DNA of 54,032 bases from Candidatus Micrarchaeota archaeon (GCA_040754495.1 JBFMCO010000031.1:1-54032), one strand, 5' to 3'. Shown: positions 26,302-48,678, numbered from the stretch's first letter. The notes: generated by a model not told the origin, from the letters alone. Numbers and translations are program-made.

Positions 26302-27114
26302 TCAGGGGGCCCCTGCGGCCAGTTTCTCCTCCTCGTGGTAGGTCTTCAGGAGCTCGTCCTGCTGCTTGAGGAGCTCAAGGTATTCCTTCTGGAGGTCGGC
26401 GAAATCCTTCTCCTCGTCGTCGCTGAACCTGCTGACCTGCCTGAGGGCGTTCTTGAGCTGGATGCGCGCGTTGAGGTCGGTCATCCTCCTGATGTTGTCC
26501 TCCAGGTGCGGCTTCGACGTCTCGCTCACCCAGACGGACCGGTTCTGCAGCTCGAGCCGGACCTCCCTCTCCACGGCCTCTTCGCAGGGCCTCAGCTCGG
26601 TTCCGGCAATCACGCAGCGGATGCCGCAGCGGCGCAGGAACCTGGCCAGCCTCTTCCTGTCTTCTTCGGGAAGCGAGCTTATGGAAAGCGGGGCATTGAC
26701 AGCGCCGGCGGCCACGGCGCCGGCAAGCGCCTTGCGCTCGCCGTCCTCCATGCGCGCCATCAGCACCGAAGCCTTGGCTATCTCGAAGCGGTTCGTGAAA
26801 TTCCTCTTCACAATCATGCCGCGCTCCTTGAGCGTCTGGAAAGCCTTGCCGTCCCTGACCTTCATCCCTTCCCTCAGGGCGTCCGGCGGGAACGATGCGA
26901 GGGCGGCGCCCAGCGCGTCCAGCCCTTCCTGGTCGGGAAAGACCAGCTCCACGCCGGCCGCGCGCGCCTTCGCGTCGAGCTCCGAGGCGCTTGAGCCCAC
27001 AGCCGCAAGCTCGCCGTCGACGTGCGCTCCCAGGACCGATTTCTGGAACTCCAGCTCAGCCTTTTTCTTTTTCAGCTCTATCAGCCTTGCCAAATCGCGT
27101 GCGCTTATCTCCAT
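26302..27114 (-). CDS. Hypothetical protein with N- and C-terminal coiled coils
   Basis: 270 aa, E/K/L/A-rich; fills the gap convergent to 25419..26300. Confidence 0.7.
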   Translation of the reverse strand: MEISARDLARLIELKKKKAELEFQKSVLGAHVDGELAAVGSSASELDAKARAAGVELVFPDQEGLDALGAALASFPPDALREGMKVRDGKAFQTLKERGMIVKRNFTNRFEIAKASVLMARMEDGERKALAGAVAAGAVNAPLSISSLPEEDRKRLARFLRRCGIRCVIAGTELRPCEEAVEREVRLELQNRSVWVSETSKPHLEDNIRRMTDLNARIQLKNALRQVSRFSDDEEKDFADLQKEYLELLKQQDELLKTYHEEEKLAAGAP

Positions 27115-28762: not shown

Positions 28763-28927
28763 GCACCAGTTTCCGCCGCCCCGCATTAAAACCCTTTTGG
28801 CCCTGCCGGCTCCACGGCCGGGCTCCTCGTGCGAACCATTCCGTTTAAAACACGTTCTACAACACGCTTAGGATGACGCCCGGAGGGCCGGACAAGGTTT
28901 TAATATATGCAAGGGAAAATACCATTC

Positions 28928-30681: not shown

Positions 30682-33600
30682 TCAGCTTATCGTGCAGTTG
30701 ATGTCATAGTCGCGCAGGGGGAGCTGGATGCCGCAGAAGCTCCCAAGCTCGGATATCGTGCCCGTGTCCCCGAGGCCGCAGTCGACGTTCGGGTCGCCGG
30801 TCCTGGGGAACACCACCGGCTTGTTGATGGAGTTCACGAACGTGTCCTTCACGTACGTGTATTTCTTGCCGTTCGCCCCGGCGAGGCAGCATTTCTCGGG
30901 CTTGTCGAAGCCGGCGATGACGTCCATGTAGGCGTCGTTGCTGACCTCGCTCATCGTGAACGGGCCGATGTCGTCCACCGTTCCGTTCGAATACGACAGG
31001 GTGCAGGTGTAGCTCCCGGCCGTCATGTTGCAGAGCGCGCATTCGTCCGCTCCGGTATCCACGACCGTGTCGGCCGGGCACTTGGCCTCGTCCTCGTCCA
31101 TCCCGTCAGGCACGGTGCAGAGGAAGCCGTTGTCGCACTTCCTCGGGTCCATGAGCGCGCGCGAGTATTCCGAGCACGGCCCGGTCCCTATCTTGTCGAT
31201 GCTCGCGCATTTGGTGCAGTTCTGGGCATCCACGGCGCCGACGCGCGTGAAAAGGGCGACCGGATATCCGGTGGACATCTTCTGCATCGCACCCTGGAAG
31301 GCGCAGAACTTCGGCGTCTTGTAGCCGATGCTCCCGGTGATGTCCACCAGGCCCTTCCCGCCTGCGCTTGACCTTGCGGGCGAGTAGATGATGCCGGTCA
31401 CGCCTGCCTTGACGAGGTCGTCCTGCTGGGTGACGATGGTCTCGAAAAGCTCGTCGTAGGTGTTGGAGTTCCAGTACCCGTCGTTGCTCTGCACGTTCAG
31501 GCCGACCACCATCGTCGGCTTACGCCTGGACTGCAGGGCGGTGCGGCCGTAGGACGCTATGTCCTCGGCGATGGCGATGCTCCTGTTCTTCACGTCGCTG
31601 ATGCCGCCCAGCACGGACGAGTGGCTCGATACCGGGTAGTCGAATGTCACCATGTCCAGGCTGAAGGTCGCGCGCGGGTCGGAGAGGACTGAATTTATGG
31701 AGTCGTTGAATGACGCGATGCTCGAGGGGCTGTCCACGTGGAACGCGGTCAGGCAGCCGAAGCATTTCTCCTTCACTATGTTGCTCCGGTTTATGATGGT
31801 CTCTATCTTGGTCTCGTCGGCCTCGCCGCTCACATGGTCCACTATGACGACCGAGGCGCCCATCTCCCCGAAGAGCCTCTGGAAGTCGTACTGCTGGTAG
31901 TAGTCGTCCGAGCCCGAATCAAGGTAGAACAGGAAGAAGCTGCCGTCCCCTGCGTCCGGGTTGTTTATGTTCCAGTTGCTCGCATCGCTCATGTCGAATA
32001 CCGGCATCACGCCTGCCTTCATGTAATTGCCCAGCCTCTCCTTGAGGATGGAAGCCTCCGGGCTGGTCCTCGGGGAGCCGACCGAGCCCAGGGACTCCTT
32101 GTAGTCGTTGATGTCCGTTATGTGTGTGTTGAAGCAGGAGACGTTATCCGTCACCCTGAAGCCCATGAACCCTTCCCAGTTGACCTTGTACGAGGGCTGG
32201 CAGATGGACTCGAGGTTGCTGTAGGAGCCGCCCTCAACGTTAGCGGTGTAGGCCGGCATGTAGACCCTGCTGTAGGCCGTAATGTTCTGGAACGCCAGGG
32301 TGGAGGTCGTGCACGGCTGGCACCAGCCGTAAGTCCTCACCTCGGGCAGGTACGTGCTGTCGTCCACCGCGCAGTTCCCTATTTTCCCGTTGCCGGGCGT
32401 GTACTTGAACAGGTAAATATAGCGGCTGAAGGCCAAATCGTAATACATGTTCGGGCTCTCGAAAAACCACCACGGATAGTAGTCCCTGCGCACCTCGCAG
32501 CTGCTCGTGCCGGGGGTGCTCGTCATGTACTCGTCGTAGATGTTGCGCTCCCTGAGCGCCTGGCCCGCCGTAGAGGCGATGTGGTATCCTATCAGGTCGA
32601 AGTAGTTGTGGCCTGTGAAGTCGGCATCCGAGAATCCCTTGGAATACATGACTATCCACGGGATGGACGATACCACCGCGTCGTAAGACTGGATGGCGTC
32701 CCCGCAGCCGTCGCTGAAGCCCTGCGTCTTGATGGCCTTCACCCTCTCCTGGAAGTACGGCTTGAAGGAGTCCATGAGGGCGCTCCAGTCCGAATCGCTC
32801 ATGCTGCTCAGCTCGACCTTGACGTAGTCGGTCGCGCCTATGCTGCAGTTCTTCACGACCGCCATGCTGTTGAACTCCGAGTCGCTGCCCGCAAGCGCAT
32901 AGCCGATTATCGTGCTGCCGCCGTACTGGACCTCGTCGTCGCCCTGCTTGCCGAAGAACACCGCGCCGCCGGCCGGGGGCCTCGAATAGTCGTAGAGCGA
33001 GGAGCACAGCACGGTCGTGCTCTCGTTGTTGGTTCCGTAGTCGAACTGGCAGTATTTTTTCTGCGTGTTGTAGAAATAAGTGTACACGCTGTTCGTAACG
33101 GTGCGGTTCGTGCCCTGCCTCGTGTTGCTGAACAGCGATATGTCGAATGCGTCCCAGTACGGGTCCATCGCCGCCTCATCCTGGGAGAGGGTGTTGTACG
33201 AAATCCCCGGGTTGATGCTTAGCGGATACTCCAGGTGCACCGGATAAGCCTGGATGGACGCGTAGGTGAAGGTCGGGGTCGCGCCCCCTCCGGGTACGGT
33301 CACGGACTTGGTCGGCGCGCACACGACCACGGTCTGGCCTACCTCGTTCTGCACCCTGTTGCAGTCCGCGACCACTTCGTCGCCGTCGCCAGCCAGGCCG
33401 GGATACTCGAGGAGCACCCCCCTGTTGTACACCTGCGTGTCGCACGCACCCGAGTAGCAGTCGTTCGTCCTCGCATCGCACTCGAAAGGCGCTCTCGTGG
33501 TGCTGGCCGAGGTGAGCCCGTACATGGTCGAGGCATGGGCTATCGAGAGCTGCTTCCTGTAGAACGCGTCGTCTATCTTCTTGTAGATGCCGTCCTGCCT

Positions 33601-34533
33601 CACGAACGCATCCTCGTATACGTAGCCTCCCCAGTCGCTCCAGTACGCGTTCCAGTCCTCCCTCGCGTGGTGGGCGAACTTGTAGTTCGACGCGTCAGGC
33701 ACAACCGGGGTGAAGGTGAAGCCGCCGGCATATGGCATGCCGCCGGTTTTCGCAGCCGCGCTCTCGGTAAATCCGAAGGGGTTCGGGGTGCCGAAGGGGG
33801 ACGTTGCGCTATCGTCGAGGCAATTGACGTTTATGCTGGCCCCGGGGTTGTATCCAGTGATTGAGCTCGTCAGGTAGTTCATGTACCTGTCCACCCTCTG
33901 CGCGCCCGAGGCGCCGGAGTTGATGTTGCAGAACTTATCCGAGAGCGGGAAGAAATACCTGTACTGGTCGAATTCGTCGAATGAGCCGCCGACGCCCACC
34001 CTGAACACGTTTATCGACGACTTGCTGCTCCTCATTATCTGGCGCAGCTTCGCGTCCATCGTGAGGAACCGGCACTGGGCCTTGTAGAAGTTCGCCGCGC
34101 CTCCTTCTCCGGTGTCCGGGGGTATGTCGCCCGATGAGCCCTCGACGTTCCCCTCGGCGCTGCTCGTGTCGTTGCCGCTCGTCACGAAGCCGGGTGCGAA
34201 CTGCGGCTTGAACTTGAAGTCCCCGCAGACCATCGCGGTGCAGTTCTGGGATATGCACGGCACTATCTGGTCCTGCGTGCAGACGGGTATGAGGTAGGAC
34301 TTCGTGCCGACCGAGACGTTGCAGTGGCCGGTCGTGTTGGTGGCGTTGTCGTCGCAGAGGCCGTTCGTCTGGGAGATGAGGTTGTACGTAAGGAAATCCG
34401 TGGTGTTGTAGAGCATGCAGCCCTCGCTGATGTTCTCCTTGAGGCAGCACCCGAGCTTCTGCACGGGCTGGATGCACCCTGCGGCCAGGAGGGCCAGGAC
34501 GACCGCTGCAATTACAATCGGGGCTCTCATCAT
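30682..34533 (-). CDS. Giant Cys-rich surface lipoprotein (1283 aa) with a possible glycoside-hydrolase-like barrel near the C-terminus
   Basis: LLAAGC lipobox; many Cys, aromatic residues and N-x-S/T sequons; overlaps the upstream stop by 4 nt. Confidence 0.85.
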   Translation of the reverse strand: MMRAPIVIAAVVLALLAAGCIQPVQKLGCCLKENISEGCMLYNTTDFLTYNLISQTNGLCDDNATNTTGHCNVSVGTKSYLIPVCTQDQIVPCISQNCTAMVCGDFKFKPQFAPGFVTSGNDTSSAEGNVEGSSGDIPPDTGEGGAANFYKAQCRFLTMDAKLRQIMRSSKSSINVFRVGVGGSFDEFDQYRYFFPLSDKFCNINSGASGAQRVDRYMNYLTSSITGYNPGASINVNCLDDSATSPFGTPNPFGFTESAAAKTGGMPYAGGFTFTPVVPDASNYKFAHHAREDWNAYWSDWGGYVYEDAFVRQDGIYKKIDDAFYRKQLSIAHASTMYGLTSASTTRAPFECDARTNDCYSGACDTQVYNRGVLLEYPGLAGDGDEVVADCNRVQNEVGQTVVVCAPTKSVTVPGGGATPTFTYASIQAYPVHLEYPLSINPGISYNTLSQDEAAMDPYWDAFDISLFSNTRQGTNRTVTNSVYTYFYNTQKKYCQFDYGTNNESTTVLCSSLYDYSRPPAGGAVFFGKQGDDEVQYGGSTIIGYALAGSDSEFNSMAVVKNCSIGATDYVKVELSSMSDSDWSALMDSFKPYFQERVKAIKTQGFSDGCGDAIQSYDAVVSSIPWIVMYSKGFSDADFTGHNYFDLIGYHIASTAGQALRERNIYDEYMTSTPGTSSCEVRRDYYPWWFFESPNMYYDLAFSRYIYLFKYTPGNGKIGNCAVDDSTYLPEVRTYGWCQPCTTSTLAFQNITAYSRVYMPAYTANVEGGSYSNLESICQPSYKVNWEGFMGFRVTDNVSCFNTHITDINDYKESLGSVGSPRTSPEASILKERLGNYMKAGVMPVFDMSDASNWNINNPDAGDGSFFLFYLDSGSDDYYQQYDFQRLFGEMGASVVIVDHVSGEADETKIETIINRSNIVKEKCFGCLTAFHVDSPSSIASFNDSINSVLSDPRATFSLDMVTFDYPVSSHSSVLGGISDVKNRSIAIAEDIASYGRTALQSRRKPTMVVGLNVQSNDGYWNSNTYDELFETIVTQQDDLVKAGVTGIIYSPARSSAGGKGLVDITGSIGYKTPKFCAFQGAMQKMSTGYPVALFTRVGAVDAQNCTKCASIDKIGTGPCSEYSRALMDPRKCDNGFLCTVPDGMDEDEAKCPADTVVDTGADECALCNMTAGSYTCTLSYSNGTVDDIGPFTMSEVSNDAYMDVIAGFDKPEKCCLAGANGKKYTYVKDTFVNSINKPVVFPRTGDPNVDCGLGDTGTISELGSFCGIQLPLRDYDINCTIS

Positions 34534-35555
34534 ATCACTTTGCTTACCATCTTGGTGAGTTCGAACGTGTCTCCGCCCAGCACGCTCATCATGTACCTTA
34601 TGAATATCATGGTCATGAAGAACGCGACCAGCGGGTGGAGTATGAGCGAGATGTAGGATTTCGCGAGGTCGTTCCTCACGCTGTCCAGGGTGAGGCCCGC
34701 GCTGCTGCCGAATCCGGCCGCCTCGAGCGAGTTCAGCACCGACACCGCGTTCGTCATCGTGGCGTAGCAGTATGGCGCCGCCTGGGTGGCGATGTTCGGC
34801 GTGGGCGGGATAGGCGAGGCGACGAACCCGGGGTCGAGCAGGACGAAGAATATCGGGAATATGAAGTACATCCCCACGCCCATGGCTATGAACAGCGCGC
34901 CGGGCCCGCGCGTTACGTAGAAACTGCGCAGGAGTATGCCCACCGGCACGAAGACGTGCAGCATGTTCACCCGCAGGTACTCCAGGAGGGACGACTGCGC
35001 GTTGAGGCCGATGAGAAGGACCGTGGCGAGGTTATTGACTATCCTGGCCGTCTCCGTGTCCCGGTAGAGCCCGCTCACCCAGTCCCCCTTGAAAAACGTC
35101 ATCCCGAATATGCTCGCCTGCATGTTGAGTATGTAGAACTCGGCTATCAGCCAGCCCGAGGACGTCGTCGCGTCCTGGATCGCGGCGACCTCGCTCGCCC
35201 TGGTCTGGAGGCGGCACCTTATGGCGCTGTACGCCTCGTCCATGGTGGTCTGGTTCGTGGTGCCGATGTGGTATGCCGTGCCCCCGCAGTAGACGTCCCC
35301 GTGGATGAACGAGCGGGATATCCCCATTGCGCTCTCCACCATGAGCACGAGGAAGATGGCCATGAACCCGGTCGCCGCGGCCCGGAGTATCTCGCTCGAC
35401 GCGAAGGCCTCCAGTTCCCTGATTGAGAACGCGCGCGCCGCCATGAGCATTATCGTGTGCGCGAGGATTGCCGTCGCCACTGCCAGTATCGACAGGGGGA
35501 GCCAGTTGGCCCATGCCCCGTAGAAGCTGCTGATGGAAAGCACCGGCATCATCAT
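34530..35555 (-). CDS. Polytopic membrane protein, paralog 6 of CedA/VirB6-like array
   Basis: Blocks RELEAFASSEILRA, PVGILLRSFYVTRGPGALFIAMG..YFIFP and HPLV..FIRYMMSVLGGD. Start trimmed from ORF 35762. Confidence 0.8.
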   Translation of the reverse strand: MMMPVLSISSFYGAWANWLPLSILAVATAILAHTIMLMAARAFSIRELEAFASSEILRAAATGFMAIFLVLMVESAMGISRSFIHGDVYCGGTAYHIGTTNQTTMDEAYSAIRCRLQTRASEVAAIQDATTSSGWLIAEFYILNMQASIFGMTFFKGDWVSGLYRDTETARIVNNLATVLLIGLNAQSSLLEYLRVNMLHVFVPVGILLRSFYVTRGPGALFIAMGVGMYFIFPIFFVLLDPGFVASPIPPTPNIATQAAPYCYATMTNAVSVLNSLEAAGFGSSAGLTLDSVRNDLAKSYISLILHPLVAFFMTMIFIRYMMSVLGGDTFELTKMVSKVI

Positions 35556-35557
35556 AT

Positions 35558-36634
35558 CTACACCAGTTGGGTTATCCTGCTTAAATCTATATCCTCTCCG
35601 TAGAGGCGCGCTATATAGCTCACGCTTGCAATCGTCGCGAGCAGGGCTATGCTCGGGAAGAACACCGCCGCGACGAAGGAGTTCGACGCGAACATGATGG
35701 CCCCGGCGGGGTTCTCCAGGTCGTTCGAGCCGAAGCCGCAGCCTCCGGAGCTGAAGTAGCACGCCCTCAGGTAGTCCTCGCCCATCATGCTCTGGGCCAC
35801 GCCGCCTCCTCCTTCCCGGGCCGGGTATTTGTCCTCGTTGTAGGCGGACATGGGCTGCGGAAGCGGCGTGAAGCCGGTCCCTGCATCAAGCAGGGTGTTC
35901 CTCATGAGGTAAAGGATGCTGAGCAGGAACGGATAGACCACCAGGAAGGCCATGGCGAGAGCTATGAAGAGCGAGCCGAAGGAGCGCATATACGGCATGG
36001 ACCGCATGAAGACGCCGAGGGGCAGGAAGAGGAAGACGAATCCCTTGTACACGAACAGCAGGATGAAGAGGAAATTGAGCACCATGAAGTGGGAGATTAT
36101 CGCGCCGTTGAAGAAGATGTTCATCGCCGCCATGTGGGCGCCGTATCCGCCGAGGGGCTGCTGGGTGTCTCCCGAGTAGCCGAAGAGGCAGCCCCACCCT
36201 ATCCTGCCTGTCGCGAGGTCACAGATGAAGGCGTTGAAGAACGACAGCGTCGTGTACGCTTCGAGGTGGTATCGCACGACCGTCAGGGCGTTGTGCGAAT
36301 AGAGCGCGGTCTCGTTCAGGTAGCTCTGCGCCGCGCTGTAGATGTCCGGGTTTCCGGGCGGCGCTGTCAGGTCGAAGAGGCCCGCGACCTCGTCCATCCT
36401 GATGGCGCAGAACGTGTTCATGATGGTAAGCAGCACGAAGACCGTGGCCATGGAGATGACCAGCTGGACGGCCTCGGTCCTTCCCCACAGCGTCAGCTTG
36501 GGGTTCGCGAGAGCGGTCCCGGCCATATACGCGCCCCCGATTATGAGCGACGTGGTGACGCTCGCGACGGCCAGCAGCGGCATTATCGTTGCGCCAAAGA
36601 ACGCTCCGAACTCAGGACCGCAGATATTGACCAT
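35558..36634 (-). CDS. Polytopic membrane protein, paralog 5 of CedA/VirB6-like array
   Basis: AYMAG..NPKLTLWGRTEAVQ, PLGVFMRSMPYMRSFGSLFIALA..LVVYP, FPSI..IARLYGEDIDLSRITQLV. Confidence 0.8.
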   Translation of the reverse strand: MVNICGPEFGAFFGATIMPLLAVASVTTSLIIGGAYMAGTALANPKLTLWGRTEAVQLVISMATVFVLLTIMNTFCAIRMDEVAGLFDLTAPPGNPDIYSAAQSYLNETALYSHNALTVVRYHLEAYTTLSFFNAFICDLATGRIGWGCLFGYSGDTQQPLGGYGAHMAAMNIFFNGAIISHFMVLNFLFILLFVYKGFVFLFLPLGVFMRSMPYMRSFGSLFIALAMAFLVVYPFLLSILYLMRNTLLDAGTGFTPLPQPMSAYNEDKYPAREGGGGVAQSMMGEDYLRACYFSSGGCGFGSNDLENPAGAIMFASNSFVAAVFFPSIALLATIASVSYIARLYGEDIDLSRITQLV

Positions 36635-37600
36635 TCACACAAACCTCGATACCGCACTGACGTCCACTTCTGCCCCGGCGAGCGATGTCAGCGCCCTTAA
36701 GCTCGCCGCGAACATGAGCAGGCTTATGACCGGCCCCAGCGTCGCCCTTATCATCAGGTCGTATAGGAACTTCCGGATATTGGCCCTCATGGTGTTGTAT
36801 CCGTCTATCGCGTCGTTCTCGTTGTCCTCGTCCGTGTCGCCGGCGTTGCAGTCGAGGGATACGCCGGAGGCGGTACCCCGATACGGAGTCGAGAGCGACT
36901 CCGCCGGGTCCAGGAACGTCGCGCCCATGGACTCGTTGAACACCACGCCGAGCGGGAGCATTATGTGGAGGGACACGCCGAGGGCAATCAGCAGGCCGCC
37001 CGCCCCCCTTGTCAGCTTGAGCGTGCGGAGGACGATGCCGAGGGGCAGGATGAAATTCAGCGAGAACTCCTGCGACAGCTGGATGAGCCTTTTCATGGTG
37101 AATAGCTCGCCTATGGCGAAGCCGGTGATGCCCCCGGCCATCGAGAGGGGCGTCGCAAGCATCGTGTAGCTGCCGCACCCGCTGACCGAGTATCCCATTC
37201 CGAGGATGCTGCAGGAGCTGGCCTTCGAGCCCTGCACCGCGACGTTCTTATCGTAATCCGCTACGGTGGACATGACGAGCTGGACCTCGTTCAGGTTGTC
37301 GTCTATGCTGTCAAGCGCCGCCTCCTGGAGCGAGGCGGCCGTGGAATTGACGAATATCCCTGATACATAGTTGAGCATGGAGTCCGTGCCTGTCAGGAGC
37401 ACAACCATAAGCAGGACCGCAATCACCTGGAAGAGTTCCTCCTTGGCGACCACCTGGAGCTCGTTCGCCCCGAGGCCCGTTCCCACCATGTAGAGGACGC
37501 CGAGAACCGCGACCGAGGTCACGATTGCGACGGCGGCCACGCCCTGCCATGCCGCGAAGGCGGCCGGGACAATCAGCAGCAAGAGCAGGAGCATCCTCAT
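36635..37600 (-). CDS. Polytopic membrane protein, paralog 4 of CedA/VirB6-like array
   Basis: Signal; LYMVG..NELQVVAKEELFQ, PLGIVLRTLKLTRGAGGLLIALG..HIMLP, GPVI..LTSLAGAEVDVSAVSRFV. Confidence 0.8.
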   Translation of the reverse strand: MRMLLLLLLIVPAAFAAWQGVAAVAIVTSVAVLGVLYMVGTGLGANELQVVAKEELFQVIAVLLMVVLLTGTDSMLNYVSGIFVNSTAASLQEAALDSIDDNLNEVQLVMSTVADYDKNVAVQGSKASSCSILGMGYSVSGCGSYTMLATPLSMAGGITGFAIGELFTMKRLIQLSQEFSLNFILPLGIVLRTLKLTRGAGGLLIALGVSLHIMLPLGVVFNESMGATFLDPAESLSTPYRGTASGVSLDCNAGDTDEDNENDAIDGYNTMRANIRKFLYDLMIRATLGPVISLLMFAASLRALTSLAGAEVDVSAVSRFV

Positions 37601-39693
37601 CAGAACACCTTCGCAAGGCCCGGTATCTCTATGTCTCCTCCCAGGAGCCCGGACAATCCCTTGATGAATACCAGAGTCGCCACGATGTTGAAGAGCGGGA
37701 GCAGGTAGGCCGGTATCATCAGCTTGGCCACGTTCTGTATCTCGACCTTGCCGACCAGGCCCTCGCCCCCGATTTTCGTGTATTCGCCGGAAGACTTGAC
37801 CGGTGCGTTGTTGGTCGGCCCGCACAGCTCTGCGCACTGGGTGTTTATCGGCGGGCTGTAGACATAAGATTCCTCGGTGAAGAGGCAGCTCTCGCACGTG
37901 TTGCGCGGGATTGCCACCCTGTAGTCCTTGGAACAGGCGTCGACGGAGCATCCCCCGGTTATATAGTCGTTCGGGAGCGACGATGATACGAGGCGCTTCT
38001 CCACCGGGCAGGAGTCGCACTGGCCGGCCGGCGGGTTCAGGGAGGTTATGTCCGAGAGCCTCACTGTGCAGCTGTCATAGTTCGTGATGCACGCGATGCA
38101 TGCGCCTTTGAGAGCCGCGCCGTCCTTGCACTGCGCGGGGAGGTCGGCCGGGTCCGCGTCGGCTATCCTGCACTCGGCCGGGCACGCGTCTGTGCAGAGC
38201 TCCTGGCAGTTGCCGGTGTCAGGAATCACCCACACGCAGTTCTCCGAGGCCGTCAGGCTCGCCTGGCAGTTGGACGCCTTCACGCAATCGGCGTAATTGC
38301 TGCCCTCTATGTCCACGGTGCTCGGCCTCCAGTCCAGGTCGCTCCTCTTTGCTATCCTGCAGTCGAACCTTGACTCCAGGCACTGGCCGGTGCTGCCGTC
38401 GGTATCCTCCGTGCAGTCCGGATTCAGCGGGGGCACGACCTTGCACGAGGCCGGGCACCTGTTGTATTCCGCCAAATCAAAGCTCGGGGCCGTGGTATTC
38501 ACGAGGCGCGCCACCTTGCATTCGGCAGGAACCTGGGCGCACGCCTGCTGGACCTCCAGCACAGAGCAGTTGCCTGCTGATGGGGGGTACGGCAGCTCCC
38601 TGCACGGCACGGGGCAGTCGGCCATGCTCCCGTAGTAGCACGAGATGACGTCCTTGTTGTATGCGGGGCTCTCAGGGTTCGAGCCTGTGGCCCGGTCCAG
38701 CGTCCCGGCCAGGAGCTGCTGGACGGTCCCGGAATCGGCGTCCGTGAATGCGCCGTAGACGTCGAAGGGCGATACCAGGTTGCCGCCGTCGTAATATGCC
38801 GTGGGGGCGGCGATGGAGCATTCGTTGGGGCATAATGGCACGTCGTCGTTCATGAGCTTGTCCCCGTTCACGGCCATGTCCAGCGTGACCCAGTCGAAGA
38901 TGTACATCCCCGGGAAGAAGAACATTATGCCTGCGGCGACCGCTATCAGGAGCCCACCGATTTTCCTCGTGAAGAAGAAGGAGCGGGCGACTATCCCTAT
39001 GGCGAGGATGACCGGGCCCATCTTGAACGATATCTCGTTCACGAAGAACCGCTGGGCCTCCAGTGTCGAGAGGAGGTTCGTGTAATACTCGAAGAGGATG
39101 GCGTACATGTCCTGGTCAAGGACGTAGTGGCCCGCGACCGTGGTGCCGATTCCGGCCTGCAGGCAGATTAGCGGAAGGAAGGCGGTCGTGCAGTAGAATC
39201 CGAGCCTCTTGCCAGCGGCGCTCCCTGCGTACATGTTGGCCCTGAGGATGTCGCGCGCCCCGACTTCCGCGGTGTCCACGTAGTCGTTGAGGTACGCCAT
39301 CGTCACGTTCTGGAGGCAGCTCTGCCCCACGGTGTAGCAGGCCGGCACGAGCGTCGGGTCCAGGCCGCTCCCGATGGCCATGCCCATCACTATGGCGTCT
39401 ATGAAGGAGATGGTGGCTATGAGGACGACTATTATGAGGGCGTTCGCGACTATCTGCACCAGCTCGTTGCTGGCCCATGCCTTCACCTCGGGCATCTCCA
39501 GCCCGATGCCGACCGCATAGCCTATGCCGACGAGTATGACCGAGAGCATCAGCGACATGACGGCGAGCGCCTGCCAGTACTTGACGATTTCGAGCGGGGA
39601 GCCCCCGGTCTGCGTCTCGAACTGCTGCTCGCTCACGCTCTCCGTGGCAAGGAGAAGGCCGGAAAGCAGGACGAACGCCAGCATCAGTTTCAT
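37600..39693 (-). CDS. Polytopic membrane protein, paralog 3 of CedA/VirB6-like array, with large Cys-rich insertion
   Basis: GYAVG..PEVKAWASNELVQ, AIGIVARSFFFTRKIGGLLIAVA..MFFFP, LPLFN..FIKGLSGLLGGDIEI; ~340-aa insert with ~30 Cys. Confidence 0.82.
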   Translation of the reverse strand: MKLMLAFVLLSGLLLATESVSEQQFETQTGGSPLEIVKYWQALAVMSLMLSVILVGIGYAVGIGLEMPEVKAWASNELVQIVANALIIVVLIATISFIDAIVMGMAIGSGLDPTLVPACYTVGQSCLQNVTMAYLNDYVDTAEVGARDILRANMYAGSAAGKRLGFYCTTAFLPLICLQAGIGTTVAGHYVLDQDMYAILFEYYTNLLSTLEAQRFFVNEISFKMGPVILAIGIVARSFFFTRKIGGLLIAVAAGIMFFFPGMYIFDWVTLDMAVNGDKLMNDDVPLCPNECSIAAPTAYYDGGNLVSPFDVYGAFTDADSGTVQQLLAGTLDRATGSNPESPAYNKDVISCYYGSMADCPVPCRELPYPPSAGNCSVLEVQQACAQVPAECKVARLVNTTAPSFDLAEYNRCPASCKVVPPLNPDCTEDTDGSTGQCLESRFDCRIAKRSDLDWRPSTVDIEGSNYADCVKASNCQASLTASENCVWVIPDTGNCQELCTDACPAECRIADADPADLPAQCKDGAALKGACIACITNYDSCTVRLSDITSLNPPAGQCDSCPVEKRLVSSSLPNDYITGGCSVDACSKDYRVAIPRNTCESCLFTEESYVYSPPINTQCAELCGPTNNAPVKSSGEYTKIGGEGLVGKVEIQNVAKLMIPAYLLPLFNIVATLVFIKGLSGLLGGDIEIPGLAKVF

Positions 39694-40679
39694 CCGACCA
39701 CCCTCAGGGCCTTGTGCACAGAGCCAAGGAACGTTATCAGCACCGCTATCGTGAGGTTCGGCAGGAAAATGGCCTGCGGTATCAGGCGCGCCACGTTCCA
39801 GAATCCGTTCGGGTTGTAGCATGTGAGCAGCGGCCCCTCCGCGCAGCTGTAGCTGTCTATGGGGTCGTCGCAGACGCCGGCCGCGAAGCTGCTGCAGTCG
39901 TCCAGGACGGCGTCATACATCGCGAGGTTGAAAACGTACATGAACGGCACCACCACGTAGAGGCCGAGGGCTAGCGCTATGAGGATGTTGCCCATCTGCC
40001 GCGTCGGTATGAAGAACCTGAGCACGAAAGCGCTCGGGAGTATCCATTTGATGACGTTCTCGTTTATAAAGTCCAGCGCCAGCTTCTGCATGCTCACGCT
40101 CATGAGGGCCGGGACCAGGAACGTGTTCAGTATGATGTCGTACTGGTTCGATATCACCCTCTTGTAGGCGCCGGGGGTGGCCGTGTAGGAATTGAGCAGC
40201 GGTATGGCGAGGCTCCACGAGAACGTGGAATCCATGAGGTAGTCCAGGTAGTTCTGGATGTAGCTCTTCGAGAGCGTCGTCGCATCGTTCTTGACCGCTT
40301 TCACGTAGCACGAGGCCACGCTGTTTATGCCTGAGCCCGGGCTGTAGCAGTTCGAGGGAAGGGTGCCGAGGTTCTGGAACGTGGTGTGGTAGAAGAAATC
40401 CATGAGGTTGCATGAGAATACCAGGATGCCGCTGAAGCCCAGCAGGAGCAGGATGGAGAACCCGAAGTGGTAAGCCTCGTCCTTCGCGAAAACCACGTAG
40501 TGTGTGTTGCCGATAACGCTGCCGACCATGTAGGCGGCGGCGAGCACGACTATGGTCAGCCCTATTATGGCGCCGAGGAGCATGCCCTGTTCCGAGAACA
40601 CGATTTCCGTGGCATTGGATATGCAGGAAGCCGGGAACGCCAGGCCGGCAAGCAGCAGGACTATTATCGCGGCTCTCAT
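39690..40679 (-). CDS. Polytopic membrane protein, paralog 2 of CedA/VirB6-like array
   Basis: Signal; AYMVG..NTHYVVFAKDEAYH, PSAFVLRFFIPTRQMGNILIALA..YVVVP, LPNL..FLGSVHKAL. Confidence 0.8.
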   Translation of the reverse strand: MRAAIIVLLLAGLAFPASCISNATEIVFSEQGMLLGAIIGLTIVVLAAAYMVGSVIGNTHYVVFAKDEAYHFGFSILLLLGFSGILVFSCNLMDFFYHTTFQNLGTLPSNCYSPGSGINSVASCYVKAVKNDATTLSKSYIQNYLDYLMDSTFSWSLAIPLLNSYTATPGAYKRVISNQYDIILNTFLVPALMSVSMQKLALDFINENVIKWILPSAFVLRFFIPTRQMGNILIALALGLYVVVPFMYVFNLAMYDAVLDDCSSFAAGVCDDPIDSYSCAEGPLLTCYNPNGFWNVARLIPQAIFLPNLTIAVLITFLGSVHKALRVVG

Positions 40680-41875
40680 ATCAGCCTCTGTACCCCCGCC
40701 ATGTACCATTCGCCGCCGAGCGCGGTCGAGAGGCTTCTCGCCCCGACCACCGTCACTATCCCTATGAGTATGAAGTCAAGATACGACACCAGCACGAGGT
40801 TGTTGACCGCCTTCAGGAAGCCCATTACCTCAGTGAAAACGCCCTCGGCGTAGAAATCATACGGGCCTGCCGAATAGACCGCCTCCCAGATGATGAGCAG
40901 GACCGTGTTTACTATCTGGAAGATGAGCTGGATGAGCGGGTACACCACCTGGTGCATGAGGGGCTCCCTGCACGGGGCCTGGTAAAGGCCGGCTGTCCAT
41001 GGCGTGAGGAGGAGCGGGAGGCAGATGATGGCAGAGAATATCTGCTCGGTCACGAAGAGCAGGCTGCGCACCGGCACCGACTCGCACAATGGCTCTGCCA
41101 TCACCATGGCCCACGGGTTCGCGGAGAGCCTGCTCAGGTCCATGGTCGGATTCGGCATGGTTATCGTGCCATTCAGCGCGTCCGCGAAGATTATGGACAC
41201 CGGAAGGAAGACTATGCCCGCTATGGAGACCGCTATCAGCGTGTTGCCGAGTCTCCGCGTGAAAGGTATGAGCCGTGCGATGAACGAAAGCGGCAGCAGT
41301 ATCTTCGGCACCACTACCTTCAGGAAGACGAGGAGGAGCATGAGGCCCTCGGAGAGGAAGATGGAGTTCGTCAGGCCCTGGGCAGCCATGTTCAGGGGCC
41401 CCAGCATGATGGCTATCCCGCCCAGCGTGTTGGTCGAGTAGTTTATGGAGAAATACCAGATGGGTATGTTCAGGTACGGCGCGTACGTGGCGGCGGTCCT
41501 TATCCTGCCCGCGGCGCGTATCAGGTACTCGAAGGAGGAATCGAACGTGCCGAGCCATCCCTGGACGATGTTCTGCGCCGCGGTTATGAAGTCGCTCTCC
41601 CCGGTCAGGGCGAACGTGATGCCGTTGGAGCTGATAAGCCCGCCCGTTATTACAGCTATCAGTATGAGCGCGGCCAGGAACTCGCGCAGCTCGGTCTTCA
41701 CCCACGCATCGAACTTCGGGTCCGAAATGGAGTGCGAGAACATGTTCGCCATGCCAAGGAAAGCGCCGACCACGAGGGCCACAGCCGGGACCGCGAAGGT
41801 GAGGTCGAGGGGCTCCGCGGCGAACGAGAGGCTGGCTAGCAGCACTAGTAGGACGCCGGCTCGCCTCATCGTCAT
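40676..41875 (-). CDS. Polytopic membrane protein, paralog 1 of CedA/VirB6-like array
   Basis: Signal; ANMFS..DPKFDAWVKTELRE, PLSFIARLIPFTRRLGNTLIAVS..IVFLP, RSLSTALGGE. Confidence 0.8.
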   Translation of the reverse strand: MTMRRAGVLLVLLASLSFAAEPLDLTFAVPAVALVVGAFLGMANMFSHSISDPKFDAWVKTELREFLAALILIAVITGGLISSNGITFALTGESDFITAAQNIVQGWLGTFDSSFEYLIRAAGRIRTAATYAPYLNIPIWYFSINYSTNTLGGIAIMLGPLNMAAQGLTNSIFLSEGLMLLLVFLKVVVPKILLPLSFIARLIPFTRRLGNTLIAVSIAGIVFLPVSIIFADALNGTITMPNPTMDLSRLSANPWAMVMAEPLCESVPVRSLLFVTEQIFSAIICLPLLLTPWTAGLYQAPCREPLMHQVVYPLIQLIFQIVNTVLLIIWEAVYSAGPYDFYAEGVFTEVMGFLKAVNNLVLVSYLDFILIGIVTVVGARSLSTALGGEWYMAGVQRLI

Positions 41876-41897
41876 GCCTCTAATTCTTAGGAATGCC

Positions 41898-41903
41898 TTT
41901 AAA
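41898..41903. promoter_or_regulatory. Bidirectional TATA box for the paralog operon and the divergent giant membrane protein
   Basis: Palindromic TTTAAA is exactly 23 nt from ATG 41875 (-) and from ATG 41926 (+); purine-rich BRE-like GAAAACG on the minus side. Confidence 0.65.
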
Positions 41904-41925
41904 CGTTTTCTATGGAAGCTATATC

Positions 41926-44900
41926 ATGAGAGCCCTCGTCTTGCTGCTCCTGCTTGTCCCGGCCGTCCTGGCAGTCGAAGAGTGCATCTCCTGCGAGGAG
42001 ATGCAGGGCACGCCGCCGGCGCGCATCCTCAACATCCTCGACAGCTCGAACCAGACGATAGAGATTATCGCCTATTACGAGAACTACAGCGCGACGCCTT
42101 CGCGCCAGTACATCAACGATTCCATCATAATAATACACATGACGAACGCCACCGGCCTGGACCAGCTCTACAAGACCTACACGAATGCGGAGGGCAAGGC
42201 GTACTTCGATTTCGGCTCGTGGAAGGACGGCTGCGCTAACTTCAAGATACTCTACTGCCCCTTCTGCGCGCCCGGCTCACCGGCATGCGGCTTCAAGGCG
42301 TGCCTTGATTACGCGCAGATAAACACGACCGCGACCAGCGCGGACGATATCACGGCCGGTCCGGGCGGCAACCCGGTTCCCTCTCCGATAAATCCCGCGC
42401 GCTACCTGGCAACCGTGGACCAGGCATCGTACTGCCCGCCCCCGCCGTCGCTCGGCGAGACTCCGGGCCTCTGCCTTCCCCTCCTGATAATCTTCTCCCT
42501 GCTCTCCGGGGCCCTCTACCTGACAGGCAGAAACCCGTTCGCGGCATTCAACATCGGGGGCGCGCGCATAGGCCGGCACATCCGCTACCAGGCGAGGGGC
42601 AGGGGCTTTGCCATGGACCTGAAGGCGATTGCAATGTCCATCCGCAGCGCGGCCGGGGAGATGGAGGCAGCGACGGACGAGAAGGGCAACGTCGTGAAGG
42701 ACGAGAAGGGCAACGTGGTCAGGAAGGGTTCGCTCTCAGAGCCGAAATGGTTCCTATTCTCAAACATCCGCGACCTTGGGGACGTAATCGGGGGAACGCG
42801 GGGCGGCGTCACTGAAGTGAGGACCGCGGACCTCAAGACCGTCCAGCTTGCCGGCGGAAGAAGGGCAAGGCCTGGCATTTCCAAGGCGTTCAGCGAGGCC
42901 GGGAGGCAGGCGCGCGGCGGCTACGTCCGCGTTTTCGGCGCCGAGCAGAGGGACAAGGAAGGGAAGGTCACAGGAAGGGAATTCGGGGCGGGGAGGGTGA
43001 TGTCGGAATGGGGCACCGAGCTTCTCCACGGCCTCGGAAGGATTGTGGCGACGGCCTGGGACAGCACGTGGCTCTCATATCTTACTACGCTCAACGCGGG
43101 AAGCGCTCTGGAGCGCTCCATAACCGGCACGGAAAGGCAGACGAGGGCGGCGTTCCTTGCCGATGTTGAAATCATGACCGACCGCTACGGCCGCGACGTC
43201 CGGGACATGGGCGTGCGCATGCGCGAGACGACGGTCGACACCGACGGTTCCCTTACCGGAAGGGCAGGAGCGAGGTACCTTGACCTTGGCGAAATAACTT
43301 CTGCCGACGGGACGCGGGGCAGGGCGATAGTCGTCGAGTTGCCGGCGGTAGGCGAGAACGGGCAGTGGTCGGCCACGGTTTCGGTCGTCGTGGGGACCGG
43401 GGCCGAGCGCAGGGTGACGAATTATAGCTTCGAGAACGGCCGCGTGAGCGGCGTCGAGCAGCTCATGAACGTCGGCACTCGGAACCAGGTGGGCATGAGC
43501 TTCAGGGTGGGCGAAGGGGGGACGGTCGTTGCCTCGGGCCTTGTAACCTACGGGGCGGATGGAGCGCGCTCGGTAATGGAAGTCCATCGCGACGCGGAGG
43601 GCCGCATCGACCGGGTGGGCAACAACATCGTCTTACAAAGGAACGAGAGGGGCGAGGTAACAGGCGTATTCGATTCCGCCCAGGCCGGCCAGAGGGGCCA
43701 GCCGGGCCTTGCGCTCCAGCAGGGAAATGCGACCTATGACGCGGTCAATGCACTCATCAACAGCGACGGCCGGAACATCAACTCGATAGCCGGCGTCTTC
43801 GCGCTGAACGACGCGAACATGCGCGACCTAACAAGGAACACGATGAACACCCTGAACTCGCAGTGCGAGCGAACGCGGCAGGTGTACATGGACCAGTTCG
43901 GCCTCGTTCAGGTGGCGGAATCAAGCCTCCTAGGGACAATGGATGAGAACGGCCGCGTGAGGGCGCCGGATGCCGGCTCTTATGATGCCAACATCCGGGT
44001 TGTCGATTCCAGCTATACTCCTTCCGGAGAATCAAGGGAGCGGGGGCTTGCCGCTGGAACGACGATAACCGTGCAGGACGGCCAGTACCAGCGCGTGACC
44101 GGGGCAAACGGCGCTGATATCCCCCTCACGACCCGGACGATCCAAGGCGATGTGGTCGAGACCAGGATAGGGAACACGAGCGTCGTCCTCAACTCCGGAT
44201 ACAGGGAGAACCGCGACGCCGGCGGCGTCCGGGAGCACATGGGCGGCGTGAGCGAGGCCGCGGCCAACGTGATGCAGAGTTACTACTCATACCAGCCCCA
44301 TCTCCAGGAATCCGCTGGTCGCGCTTTCCTGGATGCAAATCCGGCTGTGCGGGAAGCAATGACGGCCGTTGCGCAGCAGAGGGCGCAGGCTACTGAAAGG
44401 TTCGAGGCCGCGCTCGACGCGCGCGGGGTGAGCGGCGGCACCCGCGAGGCGGCCACGGCGCTGTTCTCCTCCGTAACCTTGGGCGGTCAGGAGCTGAGGC
44501 TGTCCGGTGAAATCGAGCTTGCCGAGAGGCAATTCCAGAGGGCGAGCGCGAGGGGGGCGGAGGGCATTGCCGGCCTGAGCCTCCGCGGCCAGGCTTATGC
44601 TGCCGTCCTGTTGTCCGGCGTCCCGCCAGACTCTCCGGAAGGGCAGAGGCTGATGCAGCCCCGGCTGGAGGAAATCGGAAGGCGCGAATACGCGGCCCTT
44701 CAGCAGGCCAATTCTCCGGACCCCGCGACACGCGCACAGGGAGAGCAGGCGCTCCGTGACATGGGGTACCGGCCAAGGGAAGGGCAGAGCATGGTTGATA
44801 CCGTGGTCGCCTACCGCGTCCGGGCCGATGAAGTCGGGCAGAGGCTCGTCATCCAGGAGCGCGTCGATGCGCAGGTCGGCGCCGCGATGGCCGGACGGCC

Positions 44901-46137
44901 GGGACTGCTCGTCCCGGGAAGCGTGCTCGGCGACCCCGAATCCGGCCCGCTGGCATCCAAGGCCGCCACCGCAGTGCTCGGCCTTGGCACATCCCTTATC
45001 GGAATGCCGGAGGCCGAGGTCCGCGAGCGCATCGCGCAGCGCGTGGCTGCCGAGCCTTCGATACGGCCTGAAGACCGCCAGCGCGTCGTCGAGATGGCGA
45101 CAGAGTATATTCCAAGGGCGACTGAAGTGGCGAGAGATTACTCTGAAGCGGCCCGGGTGGTGACATCCGAGGTCAGTTCAAGGACGTACGTCTACGCACC
45201 GCACGATGCCGATATGGCGCTGGCAAGGGCCGCAGGCTCCATGACCGTCGGCCCGGGCGGGCCTCCTCCGGAGGGCAGCGACGAGCAGCGGCGCATCCTA
45301 GCCCAAGGCAACCAGTTCCTGCTCGATGCCAGCCGCACGCTCACCCGCCTCGGGCCCGATGCATCGGCCGAGGACCAGAACAGGGCAATGGGCGGCCTCC
45401 TCATGAATTATGCCAGCCAGTACGCCGCCCAGCTCACGCCGCAGCCCATGCCACAGGCCGGCACGCCGCAGGCGCAGGACTTCCAGCAGAGGAGCGGCGT
45501 CGCCATCGATTCGCCGGATGCAGCCTCCAGATGGGCAGCAGCCGAGCAGCAGCGCATCCTGGAAGCCAGCAGGACGCCGCCTTACGGCATGAGCGACGTC
45601 CAGGCATTCCTTGCGCTCGCGGCCGGAGGGCCTAACATGAACCAGGCGGAAGCACTCGCAAGAGGCGGCATGCAGACCGTATCCATGGGCCCAGTGGACC
45701 CGGCACATCCGCCTCAGCCGGTCGCATCGCTCAACCCCGCGGCGGTCACAGGCTTCGTGGTGAGTACGGATGCCGCGGTGGCCGCTGCGCGGGAGCAGGG
45801 CTGGAGGATGCCCGATGAGGTCTTCCAGTCCGGAATCCGGGGCATGGCCGCTTACCATCGCGGCGATGATGCGTATGCCCAGCAGGAGCTCACAAGGACC
45901 GCAGTCCTCACGAGTGTCTTTTCAGACGAGCGCGTGAGGGACGAGGAGAGGTACCGGGAAATGCGAAGGTACGGCGGCGAAGATGTCGGTCCATCTGACG
46001 AGTTCATGGAAAGGTACCGTGCGGCGCGGAGGTCTGCCCGCGAAGCGACGGGCATCGACATCGGCGAATACAGCCGTACGCCGCGTGCGCCTTCGCCCCC
46101 GCCCGCTGAAGGCCGGCAGCCCCGCGGGAGCACCTGA
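41926..46137 (+). CDS. Giant single-pass membrane protein (~1400 aa): signal peptide, Cys-rich ectodomain, TM, long A/G/R/E-rich tail
   Basis: MRALVLLLLLVPAVLA signal; Cys-containing ~165-aa region; TM LCLPLLIIFSLLSGALYL; uninterrupted ORF. Confidence 0.85.
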   Translation: MRALVLLLLLVPAVLAVEECISCEEMQGTPPARILNILDSSNQTIEIIAYYENYSATPSRQYINDSIIIIHMTNATGLDQLYKTYTNAEGKAYFDFGSWKDGCANFKILYCPFCAPGSPACGFKACLDYAQINTTATSADDITAGPGGNPVPSPINPARYLATVDQASYCPPPPSLGETPGLCLPLLIIFSLLSGALYLTGRNPFAAFNIGGARIGRHIRYQARGRGFAMDLKAIAMSIRSAAGEMEAATDEKGNVVKDEKGNVVRKGSLSEPKWFLFSNIRDLGDVIGGTRGGVTEVRTADLKTVQLAGGRRARPGISKAFSEAGRQARGGYVRVFGAEQRDKEGKVTGREFGAGRVMSEWGTELLHGLGRIVATAWDSTWLSYLTTLNAGSALERSITGTERQTRAAFLADVEIMTDRYGRDVRDMGVRMRETTVDTDGSLTGRAGARYLDLGEITSADGTRGRAIVVELPAVGENGQWSATVSVVVGTGAERRVTNYSFENGRVSGVEQLMNVGTRNQVGMSFRVGEGGTVVASGLVTYGADGARSVMEVHRDAEGRIDRVGNNIVLQRNERGEVTGVFDSAQAGQRGQPGLALQQGNATYDAVNALINSDGRNINSIAGVFALNDANMRDLTRNTMNTLNSQCERTRQVYMDQFGLVQVAESSLLGTMDENGRVRAPDAGSYDANIRVVDSSYTPSGESRERGLAAGTTITVQDGQYQRVTGANGADIPLTTRTIQGDVVETRIGNTSVVLNSGYRENRDAGGVREHMGGVSEAAANVMQSYYSYQPHLQESAGRAFLDANPAVREAMTAVAQQRAQATERFEAALDARGVSGGTREAATALFSSVTLGGQELRLSGEIELAERQFQRASARGAEGIAGLSLRGQAYAAVLLSGVPPDSPEGQRLMQPRLEEIGRREYAALQQANSPDPATRAQGEQALRDMGYRPREGQSMVDTVVAYRVRADEVGQRLVIQERVDAQVGAAMAGRPGLLVPGSVLGDPESGPLASKAATAVLGLGTSLIGMPEAEVRERIAQRVAAEPSIRPEDRQRVVEMATEYIPRATEVARDYSEAARVVTSEVSSRTYVYAPHDADMALARAAGSMTVGPGGPPPEGSDEQRRILAQGNQFLLDASRTLTRLGPDASAEDQNRAMGGLLMNYASQYAAQLTPQPMPQAGTPQAQDFQQRSGVAIDSPDAASRWAAAEQQRILEASRTPPYGMSDVQAFLALAAGGPNMNQAEALARGGMQTVSMGPVDPAHPPQPVASLNPAAVTGFVVSTDAAVAAAREQGWRMPDEVFQSGIRGMAAYHRGDDAYAQQELTRTAVLTSVFSDERVRDEERYREMRRYGGEDVGPSDEFMERYRAARRSAREATGIDIGEYSRTPRAPSPPPAEGRQPRGST

Positions 46138-46141
46138 TGCG

Positions 46142-46459
46142 ATGGAACGCCAGCAGACCGCGCCCATAAAGCGCCTCAGGCACCTTCTCACCTCGGGCAA
46201 CCTATGGCTCTATCTCCTCTCGCTAATCAGGAAGGAAGGGGAGCTTTATGCGTATTCCCTTGATGAGCGCATAGAGAAGGAGTTCCTCTTCAGGCCGAAC
46301 AAGATAATGGTCTATGTCGTACTTTACCGGCTGGAAGGCGAAGGGCTTATCTCGTCGCAATTCAAGGAGCGGCGGAAGTACTACCGCCTGACCGGCAAGG
46401 GGGCGCAGGCGCTGGGCTCGGCCCGCGAATATTTCAAGGCGCTTGCCGGGAAGCTCTAA
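46142..46459 (+). CDS. PadR family transcriptional regulator
   Basis: LYLLSLI..GELYAYSL, VYVVLYRLEGEGLI, RRKYYRLTGKG. Confidence 0.92.
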   Translation: MERQQTAPIKRLRHLLTSGNLWLYLLSLIRKEGELYAYSLDERIEKEFLFRPNKIMVYVVLYRLEGEGLISSQFKERRKYYRLTGKGAQALGSAREYFKALAGKL

Positions 46460-48520: not shown

Positions 48521-48678
48521 GCTGACGTCGCATAACCTGGTAGTGCGCCGGTCTTGAACGGTTTCCGGCACCCAGTTCCCGGTTTCCGGTTTTGTGTTCT
48601 GGAAACGGGAGACGGGAAACCGGAAACCCGCGATAACCGGTCCCCTGTGGATTGCAGGTTCAAATCCTGCCGTCAGCG
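48521..48678 (+). tRNA. tRNA-Ser(TGA) with a 76-nt intron at 37/38 (48559..48634)
   Basis: GCTGACG/CGTCAGC acceptor stem, G73, D arm GCAT/GTGC, anticodon stem CCGGT/ACCGG, long variable arm, T arm GCAGG-TTCAAAT-CCTGC. BHB with AAC/ATA bulges and a 9-bp intron stem GGTTTCCGG/CCGGAAACC; one mismatch in the central helix. Confidence 0.92.

Follow-up and report, generated by a model that had tools for sequence, protein, structure and literature searches.

The closest described counterparts of the locus reported here are the Ced system of Sulfolobales, made of the CedA/CedE channel, the pilin CedA1 and the ATPases CedB and CedD, and the Ted system of Thermoproteales (TedA, TedC and TedB). CedA and CedE are two VirB6-like paralogs, both needed for DNA import, and have been proposed to form a hetero-oligomer (PMC11868833). 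In addition, the N-terminal hairpin of CedA is homologous to the pilin CedA1 (PMC9905601). The locus under study is an array of six membrane protein genes found at positions 34530-41875 of a 54,032-nucleotide stretch of DNA from a Candidatus Micrarchaeota archaeon (GCA_040754495.1 JBFMCO010000031.1:1-54032), hereafter called the window. We consider it probable that the six genes are anciently duplicated, position-specific paralogs of a five-helix protein found across the Micrarchaeota, and that this protein is a VirB6/CedA/TedA-type component of a chromosomal, Ced/Ted-like machine descended from type IV secretion systems (T4SS).

A literature search found no description of the array or of a T4SS-like system in Micrarchaeota. 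The nearest published item concerns giant nanohaloarchaeal proteins that have been proposed to carry VirB4/TraG-like domains (PMC10266531). Hence, the machine to which the array belongs is apparently an unpublished variant of Ced/Ted-like, domesticated type IV secretion.

Six old paralogs in a fixed order

The six genes are consecutive, lie on the minus strand and are translationally coupled. The first gene of the array encodes paralog 1 (40676..41875, 399 amino acids), which has a signal-like N-terminus as well as extra hydrophobic segments lying after its central motif and before its C-terminal helix, and whose orthologs elsewhere in Micrarchaeota show 40-78% identity. Paralog 2 (39690..40679, 329 amino acids), paralog 3 (37600..39693, 697 amino acids), paralog 4 (36635..37600, 321 amino acids counted from the ATG at 37600), paralog 5 (35558..36634, 358 amino acids) and paralog 6 (34530..35555, 341 amino acids) follow. 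ATGA start/stop overlaps are found at junctions 1/2 and 2/3, and also between paralog 6 and a seventh gene that encodes a giant Cys-rich protein; paralogs 3 and 4 overlap by 1 nt, while the gaps at junctions 4/5 and 5/6 are 0 and 2 nt, respectively. Coordinates and junctions thus bear out the overlapping or abutting stops and starts claimed in a preliminary description of the window. Paralog 3 carries a Cys-rich ectodomain (about 37729-38871; ~390 residues, 32 of them Cys) inserted between transmembrane helices (TM) 4 and 5, and the long gene also occupies position 3 in the array of contig C37 (see below) and in L009, L010 and G038.

Pairwise identity among the six proteins is about 18-22%, and several pairs fail a pairwise phmmer test. 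When hidden Markov models (HMMs) were built from five paralogs, however, the sixth was recovered in every case, with E-values from 2.3e-9 to 2.4e-23 for a database size of one million sequences (Z = 1e6). The mutual paralogy proposed in the preliminary description therefore holds: the six genes are true but old paralogs. A central motif, LPxGxxxRxxxxTRxxGxLIAxxxxxxxxxP, is common to the six proteins, and its R, R, G, I, A and P are invariant; the first hairpin contains one invariant Glu. The C-terminus bears an LGG(D/E) tail except in paralog 2, whose sequence stops at G. Thus, the three shared blocks noticed in the preliminary description are present, but the third is truncated in paralog 2, and the Y-M-x-G of the first block is missing from paralogs 1 and 6. 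Likewise, Cys pairs are a general feature of the loops, but paralog 1 lacks one in its first outer loop. The outer loops diverge completely from one paralog to another.

In an exhaustive HMM search, 2,890 cluster representatives passed E<=1e-3, and 280 of these also passed E<=1e-30. Many representatives are 1,100-1,680 amino acids long, with the HMM match split by a large insert that can exceed 1,000 residues. All named homologs belong to Candidatus Micrarchaeota, all are annotated as 'hypothetical protein', and none has a Pfam domain; the neighbours found in the ESM Atlas are from Microcaldota, in the same phylum. The family is present in 57 of the 61 Micrarchaeota genomes sampled, and the four that lack it belong to families f10, f11 and f14 (this tally, and that of the pilin given below, count one unpublished genome, G029, whose sequences did not enter the analysis).

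The source assembly (1.63 Mb in 72 contigs, 80% complete) contains three six-gene arrays, located in the window and on contigs C37 and C1, plus a single-copy member, or singleton, on C32. The second array (C37:1-8227) runs on into a paralog of the Cys-rich giant, and C48:1-6168 opens with the C-terminal part of a paralog of that giant, followed on the same strand by a paralog of the 1414-amino-acid protein encoded at the other end of the window array. Together, C37 and C48 look like one complete second module, and their gene content therefore suggests that the eight-gene module was duplicated whole. The third array (C1:59-7890) is more diverged, and giants are not visible beside it.

In a maximum-likelihood tree, each gene of the window pairs with the C37 gene of the same position, with support of at least 99 in the Shimodaira-Hasegawa-like approximate likelihood ratio test (SH-aLRT). 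Across the six arrays compared, the genes of position 2 make up a single clade (SH-aLRT 84), and the array positions of three distant genomes fall into separate, well-supported clades. Position labels change 11 times on the tree, compared with 26.1 when shuffled, and none of 200 shuffles gave a value as low. The two singletons form a group of their own (94). How the positions branch from one another at depth is not resolved, and the C1 sequences sit on long branches. The tree and the clustering by position therefore indicate that the sixfold duplication is old and that gene order has been kept.

A pilin and a split VirB4-like motor encoded with the family

Gene context provides the strongest evidence for a relationship with T4SS. 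In all five complete Micrarchaeota genomes the singleton lies about 1 kb from a DUF87/AAA_10 ATPase of the CedB/VirB4-like kind, and in three of the five, which are mutually distant, another ATPase, paralogous to the first, is encoded about 2 kb downstream of the six-gene array. The singleton operon encodes a 127-amino-acid pilin-like protein, the family member, a 265-amino-acid protein with two TM and the ATPase. The array operon encodes a 243-amino-acid protein with six TM, the six paralogs, two 277-amino-acid proteins with two TM each and the ATPase.

The 127-amino-acid pilin-like protein (G011) matches the Pfam families TrbC/VirB2 (E 4e-5) and T4SS_pilin (E 1.6e-4), falling slightly short of the cut-off in either case, and the best sequence found in the PDB with a pilin profile is TrwL, the VirB2 of plasmid R388 (E 0.11). 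This VirB2-like gene abuts the singleton in four of the five complete genomes and lies about 400 bp away in G033; pilin-like genes are also found directly upstream of an array in some genomes, G006 among them. The pilin gene is present in 53 of the 61 genomes and is absent from the same families (f10, f11 and f14) as the membrane protein.

The ATPases linked to the singleton and to the array have CedB as their best NCBIfam match (E 5e-27, 2e-18 and 1e-18), followed by VirB4-like families and CedD, and all these matches are far below the equivalog cut-offs. The C32 homolog of the 265- and 277-amino-acid proteins (264 amino acids, encoded directly after the singleton) was modelled with a predicted local distance difference test score (pLDDT) of 74.5. 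Its nine best Foldseek matches are all TrwK/VirB4 (E 0.006-0.04, probability 0.96-1.0, ~180 columns), and an exhaustive structure search likewise places the N-terminal domain of TrwK/VirB4 first (Z 8.8, 165 residues aligned, root-mean-square deviation (rmsd) 4.5). A sequence search of the genome for that domain (PF03135) found no match, though the predicted fold of the 264-amino-acid protein fits it. A protein with two TM and a VirB4-N-like domain, plus a separate ATPase resembling the VirB4 C-terminal domain, would therefore jointly amount to one VirB4. Such a split resembles the arrangement proposed for CedB and CedD (PMC11868833).

The preliminary description stated that neither a pilin nor a VirB4 gene lies in the operon. 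This is true of the window; however, the source genome has both on other contigs, and the array operon of relatives includes the motor. Contig C32 carries genes for a DsbD-like membrane protein, a thioredoxin-like protein, the singleton, the VirB4-N-domain-like protein, a 927-amino-acid protein on the opposite strand and an ATPase. On C71, the end of a gene of the 277 type is followed by an ortholog (52% identical) of the array-linked ATPase, so that two CedB/VirB4-like ATPases are found in the source genome; a fragment of the other 277-type gene is on C34. An 84-amino-acid T4SS_pilin-like protein (E 1.2e-4) is encoded on C5. Searches for VirD4-type proteins (PF02534) and relaxases (PF03432) yielded none in this 80%-complete genome, other relaxase families not having been searched.

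Two further observations concern these operons. A conserved protein of about 245 amino acids with six TM and of no known family is encoded directly before the array in three distant genomes (L031:2771-3502, L030:3619-4368 and L028:14650-15381). Conceivably it is one more part of the machine, such as a factor that processes or assembles the pilin; a stand-alone homolog of the 243-amino-acid type is found at C6:500-1237. The other observation is that the pair immediately upstream of the C32 singleton (C32:42503-45413, equivalent to L024:4503-7417) consists of a DsbD/CcdA-type membrane protein and a thioredoxin-like protein with Redoxin and Thioredoxin_10 matches. Its members could belong to a disulfide system outside the cytoplasm that is dedicated to the machine's Cys-rich ectodomains.

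Predicted fold, rival readings and a tentative mechanism

Sequence searches with the six proteins found no Pfam match at E<=1 and no NCBIfam model at E<=0.1. Searches against PDB sequences, performed with single proteins and with profiles of 6 and 80 rows, returned nothing or AcrZ-like noise only. When 80 aligned family members were scanned against Pfam, TrbL was found in none of them and no family was recurrent, T4SS_pilin being matched by a single member (E 0.005); a search of the whole genome with the TrbL/VirB6 profile (PF04610) gave no match. The CedA motif pattern invoked in the preliminary description could not be verified. Similarity to any VirB6, TrbL or Ced model was undetectable at the sequence or profile level. 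A lead is provided by a neighbouring ESM Atlas cluster of Micrarchaeota proteins (score 0.90), 23% of whose members have the Pfam domain CedA1. Structure searches of the ESM Atlas retrieved nothing beyond the family's own cluster.

Paralog 6 was modelled with AlphaFold2 on the alignment of 80 family sequences (pLDDT 77.8, predicted template modelling score 0.74). Foldseek found no match to the model in the PDB at E<=0.001, with TrwI at E 2.8; TTYH (E 1.4-3.8), BAR-domain proteins and designed helical repeats, all at E ~1-4, were rejected as generic helical matches. An exhaustive search with VIA-align against 48,161 representative PDB chains ranked first DotA, from the DotA-IcmX protochannel of the Legionella Dot/Icm T4SS (Z 7.3, 273 residues aligned, rmsd 9.9), and second TrwI, the VirB6 of plasmid R388 (Z 6.9, 142 aligned, rmsd 4.3). 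Below them, all rows cover just one helical hairpin. When the Foldseek candidates were realigned, ranks 1-3 were all TrwI/VirB6 chains (Z 6.9-7.4, 209-220 aligned, rmsd ~7 Å). The alignment with TrwI is colinear (model 13-333, chain 8-273), with an identity of 4-5%. Hence, VirB6-class chains do come first in VIA-align, but the structural similarity anticipated in the preliminary description is not matched by a significant Foldseek hit. Because helical proteins often reach such Z values by chance, the score by itself proves nothing; the resemblance to TrwI and DotA is a good lead through its rank, coverage and colinearity.

Helices of the model and hydropathy predict an outer N-terminus, five TM helices and a cytoplasmic C-terminus, with TM2 and TM3 joined by a large outer loop that contains Cys pairs, and with the R/TR motif falling in an Arg-rich inner loop. 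The Cys-rich insert of paralog 3 falls in a predicted outer loop. VirB6 of Agrobacterium tumefaciens likewise has its N-terminus out, five TM, a large outer loop between TM2 and TM3 and a cytoplasmic C-terminus, an arrangement that the predicted topology of the family matches.

Complex prediction for paralogs 5 and 6 gave a score of 0.42, compared with 0.00 for the best control, with a partner pLDDT of at least 66 and agreement between runs in at least 63% of contacts. In the calibration of this score, the mark was reached by 58 of 80 solved complexes and by 2 of 110 mismatched pairs; at scores of 0.60 or less, just 7 of the 80 solved complexes passed, together with both passing mismatches. 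The kinship of the two proteins could also contribute to the score. The prediction is thus weak support for their assembly.

Altogether, structural matches and gene context support in kind the VirB6/CedA-like reading of the preliminary description: TrwI and DotA head the rankings, the singleton belongs to operons with pilin and motor genes, and the motor comes after the array in relatives. Several observations weigh against it. At the sequence and profile levels, the family resembles neither TrbL/VirB6 nor any NCBIfam model or PDB chain. Alignment of the family with micrarchaeal pilins by hhalign places TM1-loop-TM2 on the pilin hairpin, which is the expected register, but the alignment is not significant (probability 0.3%, E 0.21). 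A Z of about 7 with a full-length rmsd of about 7 Å is no more than helical models frequently attain by chance. In the source genome, none of the three arrays is seen beside a motor gene. Lastly, both genes that flank the array of the window encode giant proteins without a counterpart in T4SS.

The latter observations admit a different explanation: the six proteins might form a cell-envelope complex unrelated to type IV secretion, for instance one on which the giant Cys-rich surface proteins or an S-layer are anchored or assembled, or a TTYH-like scaffold with five TM. The adjacency to ATPases in other lineages would then be a different or secondary association. The nil sequence-level link to T4SS families and structural Z values in the noise range for helical proteins are compatible with this view, and so is the presence of TTYH chains among the weak Foldseek rows. 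Furthermore, within the order of the source organism the array is always bracketed by the two giants in housekeeping surroundings and not by a motor. We nevertheless regard an envelope complex of this kind as improbable, for VirB6-class chains rather than TTYH lead both VIA-align lists and alone cover the whole model; moreover, the singleton fills the VirB6 slot of a pilin/VirB4 operon in five of five complete genomes, three distant genomes have the array and the split VirB4-like motor in the same operon, and the pilin and the membrane family have been lost together.

A kinship with T4SS would also be retained if the six proteins were channel or adhesin-bearing subunits that stand in for one another, each one building homo-oligomers with an ectodomain of its own for a given partner or condition. 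The wholly different outer loops of the paralogs are in line with this possibility, as are the members elsewhere whose inserts exceed 1,000 residues, the retention of three arrays plus a singleton in one genome, and the precedent of Rickettsiales, which have several VirB6 paralogs, one of them hugely extended (PMC7648143). Both the number six and the gene order are, however, fixed across orders, and positional orthology combined with tight translational coupling better fits six subunits at equal stoichiometry. Interchangeable subunits therefore seem to us quite unlikely.

If the array does encode VirB6/CedA/TedA-type components, we infer that all six proteins would join in a single hetero-oligomer, which would serve as a platform or channel of the cytoplasmic membrane. 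On its cytoplasmic side, the motor would dock at the conserved R-x5-T-R loop and at the LGGD tail. The motor itself might consist of the proteins with two TM and a VirB4-N domain plus a CedB-like ATPase (encoded, in this genome, on C32, C34 and C71). Exposed on the outside would be the giant Cys-rich lipoprotein, the large insert of paralog 3, likewise rich in Cys, and the variable loops with their disulfide bonds; a VirB2-like pilin (C5) may polymerise from the membrane base. By analogy with Ced and Ted, the most likely cargo would be DNA moved between cells, and the machine would be a candidate for the exchange of DNA or other material. The preliminary description also proposed nutrient uptake from a host or effector delivery to it, and these would be hypothetical roles. 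A bolder speculation, which we find rather unlikely, is that a pseudo-sixfold, hetero-hexameric VirB6-type ring matches a hexameric VirB4-like motor and, with the Cys-rich ectodomains and the two giants, makes up the long-sought conduit at contact sites, by which Micrarchaeota would draw DNA, lipids or metabolites from their host cells; in other words, a symbiosis organelle made from conjugation parts.

Flanking genes and comparison with known systems

The seventh gene of the operon (30682..34533, minus strand), coupled to paralog 6, encodes the giant Cys-rich, lipoprotein-like protein of 1283 amino acids, an array partner that is conserved within the order of the source organism. On the other side, the divergent gene for the 1414-amino-acid giant (41893..46137, plus strand) is separated by 17 nt from the start of paralog 1, and its position is conserved in relatives. 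Pfam and NCBIfam scans of both giants detected no significant family. The ten nearest named ESM Atlas clusters of the 1283-amino-acid protein are all glycosidases of clan GH-A (GH42, GH5 and GH53; scores 0.81-0.84), a lead at the feature level only. A gene for a PadR-family regulator (45983..46459 as listed, plus strand, with the true start probably near 46134) comes directly after the 1414-amino-acid giant, as it does in relatives.

On long contigs of relatives, a recurring block is formed by ScpB, an AAA_18 kinase-like gene, PadR and the giant, followed by the divergent six-paralog array (~399/330/680-700/326/355-370/341-354 amino acids) and by the Cys-rich protein of ~1,270-1,290 amino acids. 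Genes for Pcc1, prefoldin and adenylosuccinate synthase are also found in the neighbourhood of the array in relatives. The array module is vertically inherited and chromosomal, and is not a mobile element.

Elsewhere in the window, a HerA-type ATPase gene (21269-22780, plus strand) with DUF87 as its sole domain match (E 2e-30) lies among genes without Pfam matches. It was considered as the motor and rejected, as its product is only 23% identical to the array-linked ATPases and lacks their AAA_10/TraG-type Pfam matches; it is probably a DNA-repair HerA, external to the machine. A 576-amino-acid protein encoded at 27056-28786 (minus strand) has a single match, to the C-terminal proteolytic domain of Lon protease (E 5.5e-11, residues 105-174). 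An Rfam tRNA match of 158 nt and 44.7 bits was found at 48521-48678 (plus strand). ARAGORN, which detected no tRNA across the 54-kb window, missed it, as it would an intron-bearing archaeal tRNA.

DPANN archaea lack most biosynthetic pathways, and a phylum-wide, inherited machine derived from T4SS would, if real, bear on how they obtain host material. It would also provide definite target genes for tagging, deletion or imaging in those few Micrarchaeota that are in culture, and would mean that Ced/Ted-like systems occur outside Thermoproteota as well. A VirB6 platform of hetero-oligomeric make-up, if confirmed, would be a new way of matching a channel to a hexameric motor. What would set the machine apart is the combination of giant, disulfide-rich surface partners and a pilin with a VirB4 motor in split form and a fixed set of six VirB6-like subunits.

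TrwI of R388 (PDB 7O3V, 8RT9 and 8RTD) and DotA are the best full-length structural matches of the family, which would share with them a colinear fold, although at Z values that chance can give; its predicted five TM, large outer loop following TM2 and C-terminus in the cytoplasm also agree with theirs, and in the loci of relatives it is encoded, like VirB6/TrbL, beside VirB4-like and VirB2-like genes. It differs from TrwI/VirB6 in its identity of 4-5% and in leaving Pfam TrbL unmatched. TrwI, in addition, forms a homopentamer with VirB5, whereas counterparts of VirB5, VirB8 and VirB10 were not seen in the micrarchaeal system.

Tandem VirB6 paralogs in a reduced, host-dependent genome, one of them with a very large extension, are also found in Rickettsiales, for example virB6-1 to virB6-4 of Anaplasma (PMC7648143). 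The bacterial paralogs, however, are four or five and recognisable by sequence, whereas the micrarchaeal ones are six, far more diverged and phylum-wide. The locus also departs from plasmid conjugation, as PF03432, the sole relaxase profile searched, and PF02534 are unmatched in the 80%-complete genome, and as its surroundings in relatives are those of conserved housekeeping genes (ScpB, Pcc1, prefoldin and adenylosuccinate synthase).

Likeness is greatest with Ced and Ted. As in these systems, the machine would be a chromosomal, 'domesticated' archaeal derivative of T4SS, built from VirB4-like ATPases, polytopic proteins of the VirB6 kind and a VirB2-like pilin; on both sides the VirB6-like proteins come in more than one paralogous form, and the ATPases in two (PMC9905601, PMC11868833). 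The best NCBIfam match of the micrarchaeal ATPases is CedB itself, though far below the equivalog cut-off, and neither a PF03432-type relaxase nor a PF02534-type VirD4 was found in the 80%-complete genome. Differences are, however, considerable. The micrarchaeal family has no detectable sequence similarity to Ced models, DNA transfer would be a candidate function for it whereas Ced imports DNA, and the bearer is a DPANN symbiont instead of a free-living crenarchaeon. In place of the one or two VirB6-like proteins of Ced and Ted, the Micrarchaeota have six paralogs in fixed order per array, with a singleton and up to three arrays per genome; their motor is split into proteins with two TM and a VirB4-N domain and an ATPase, and giant Cys-rich partners and large ectodomain inserts are added.

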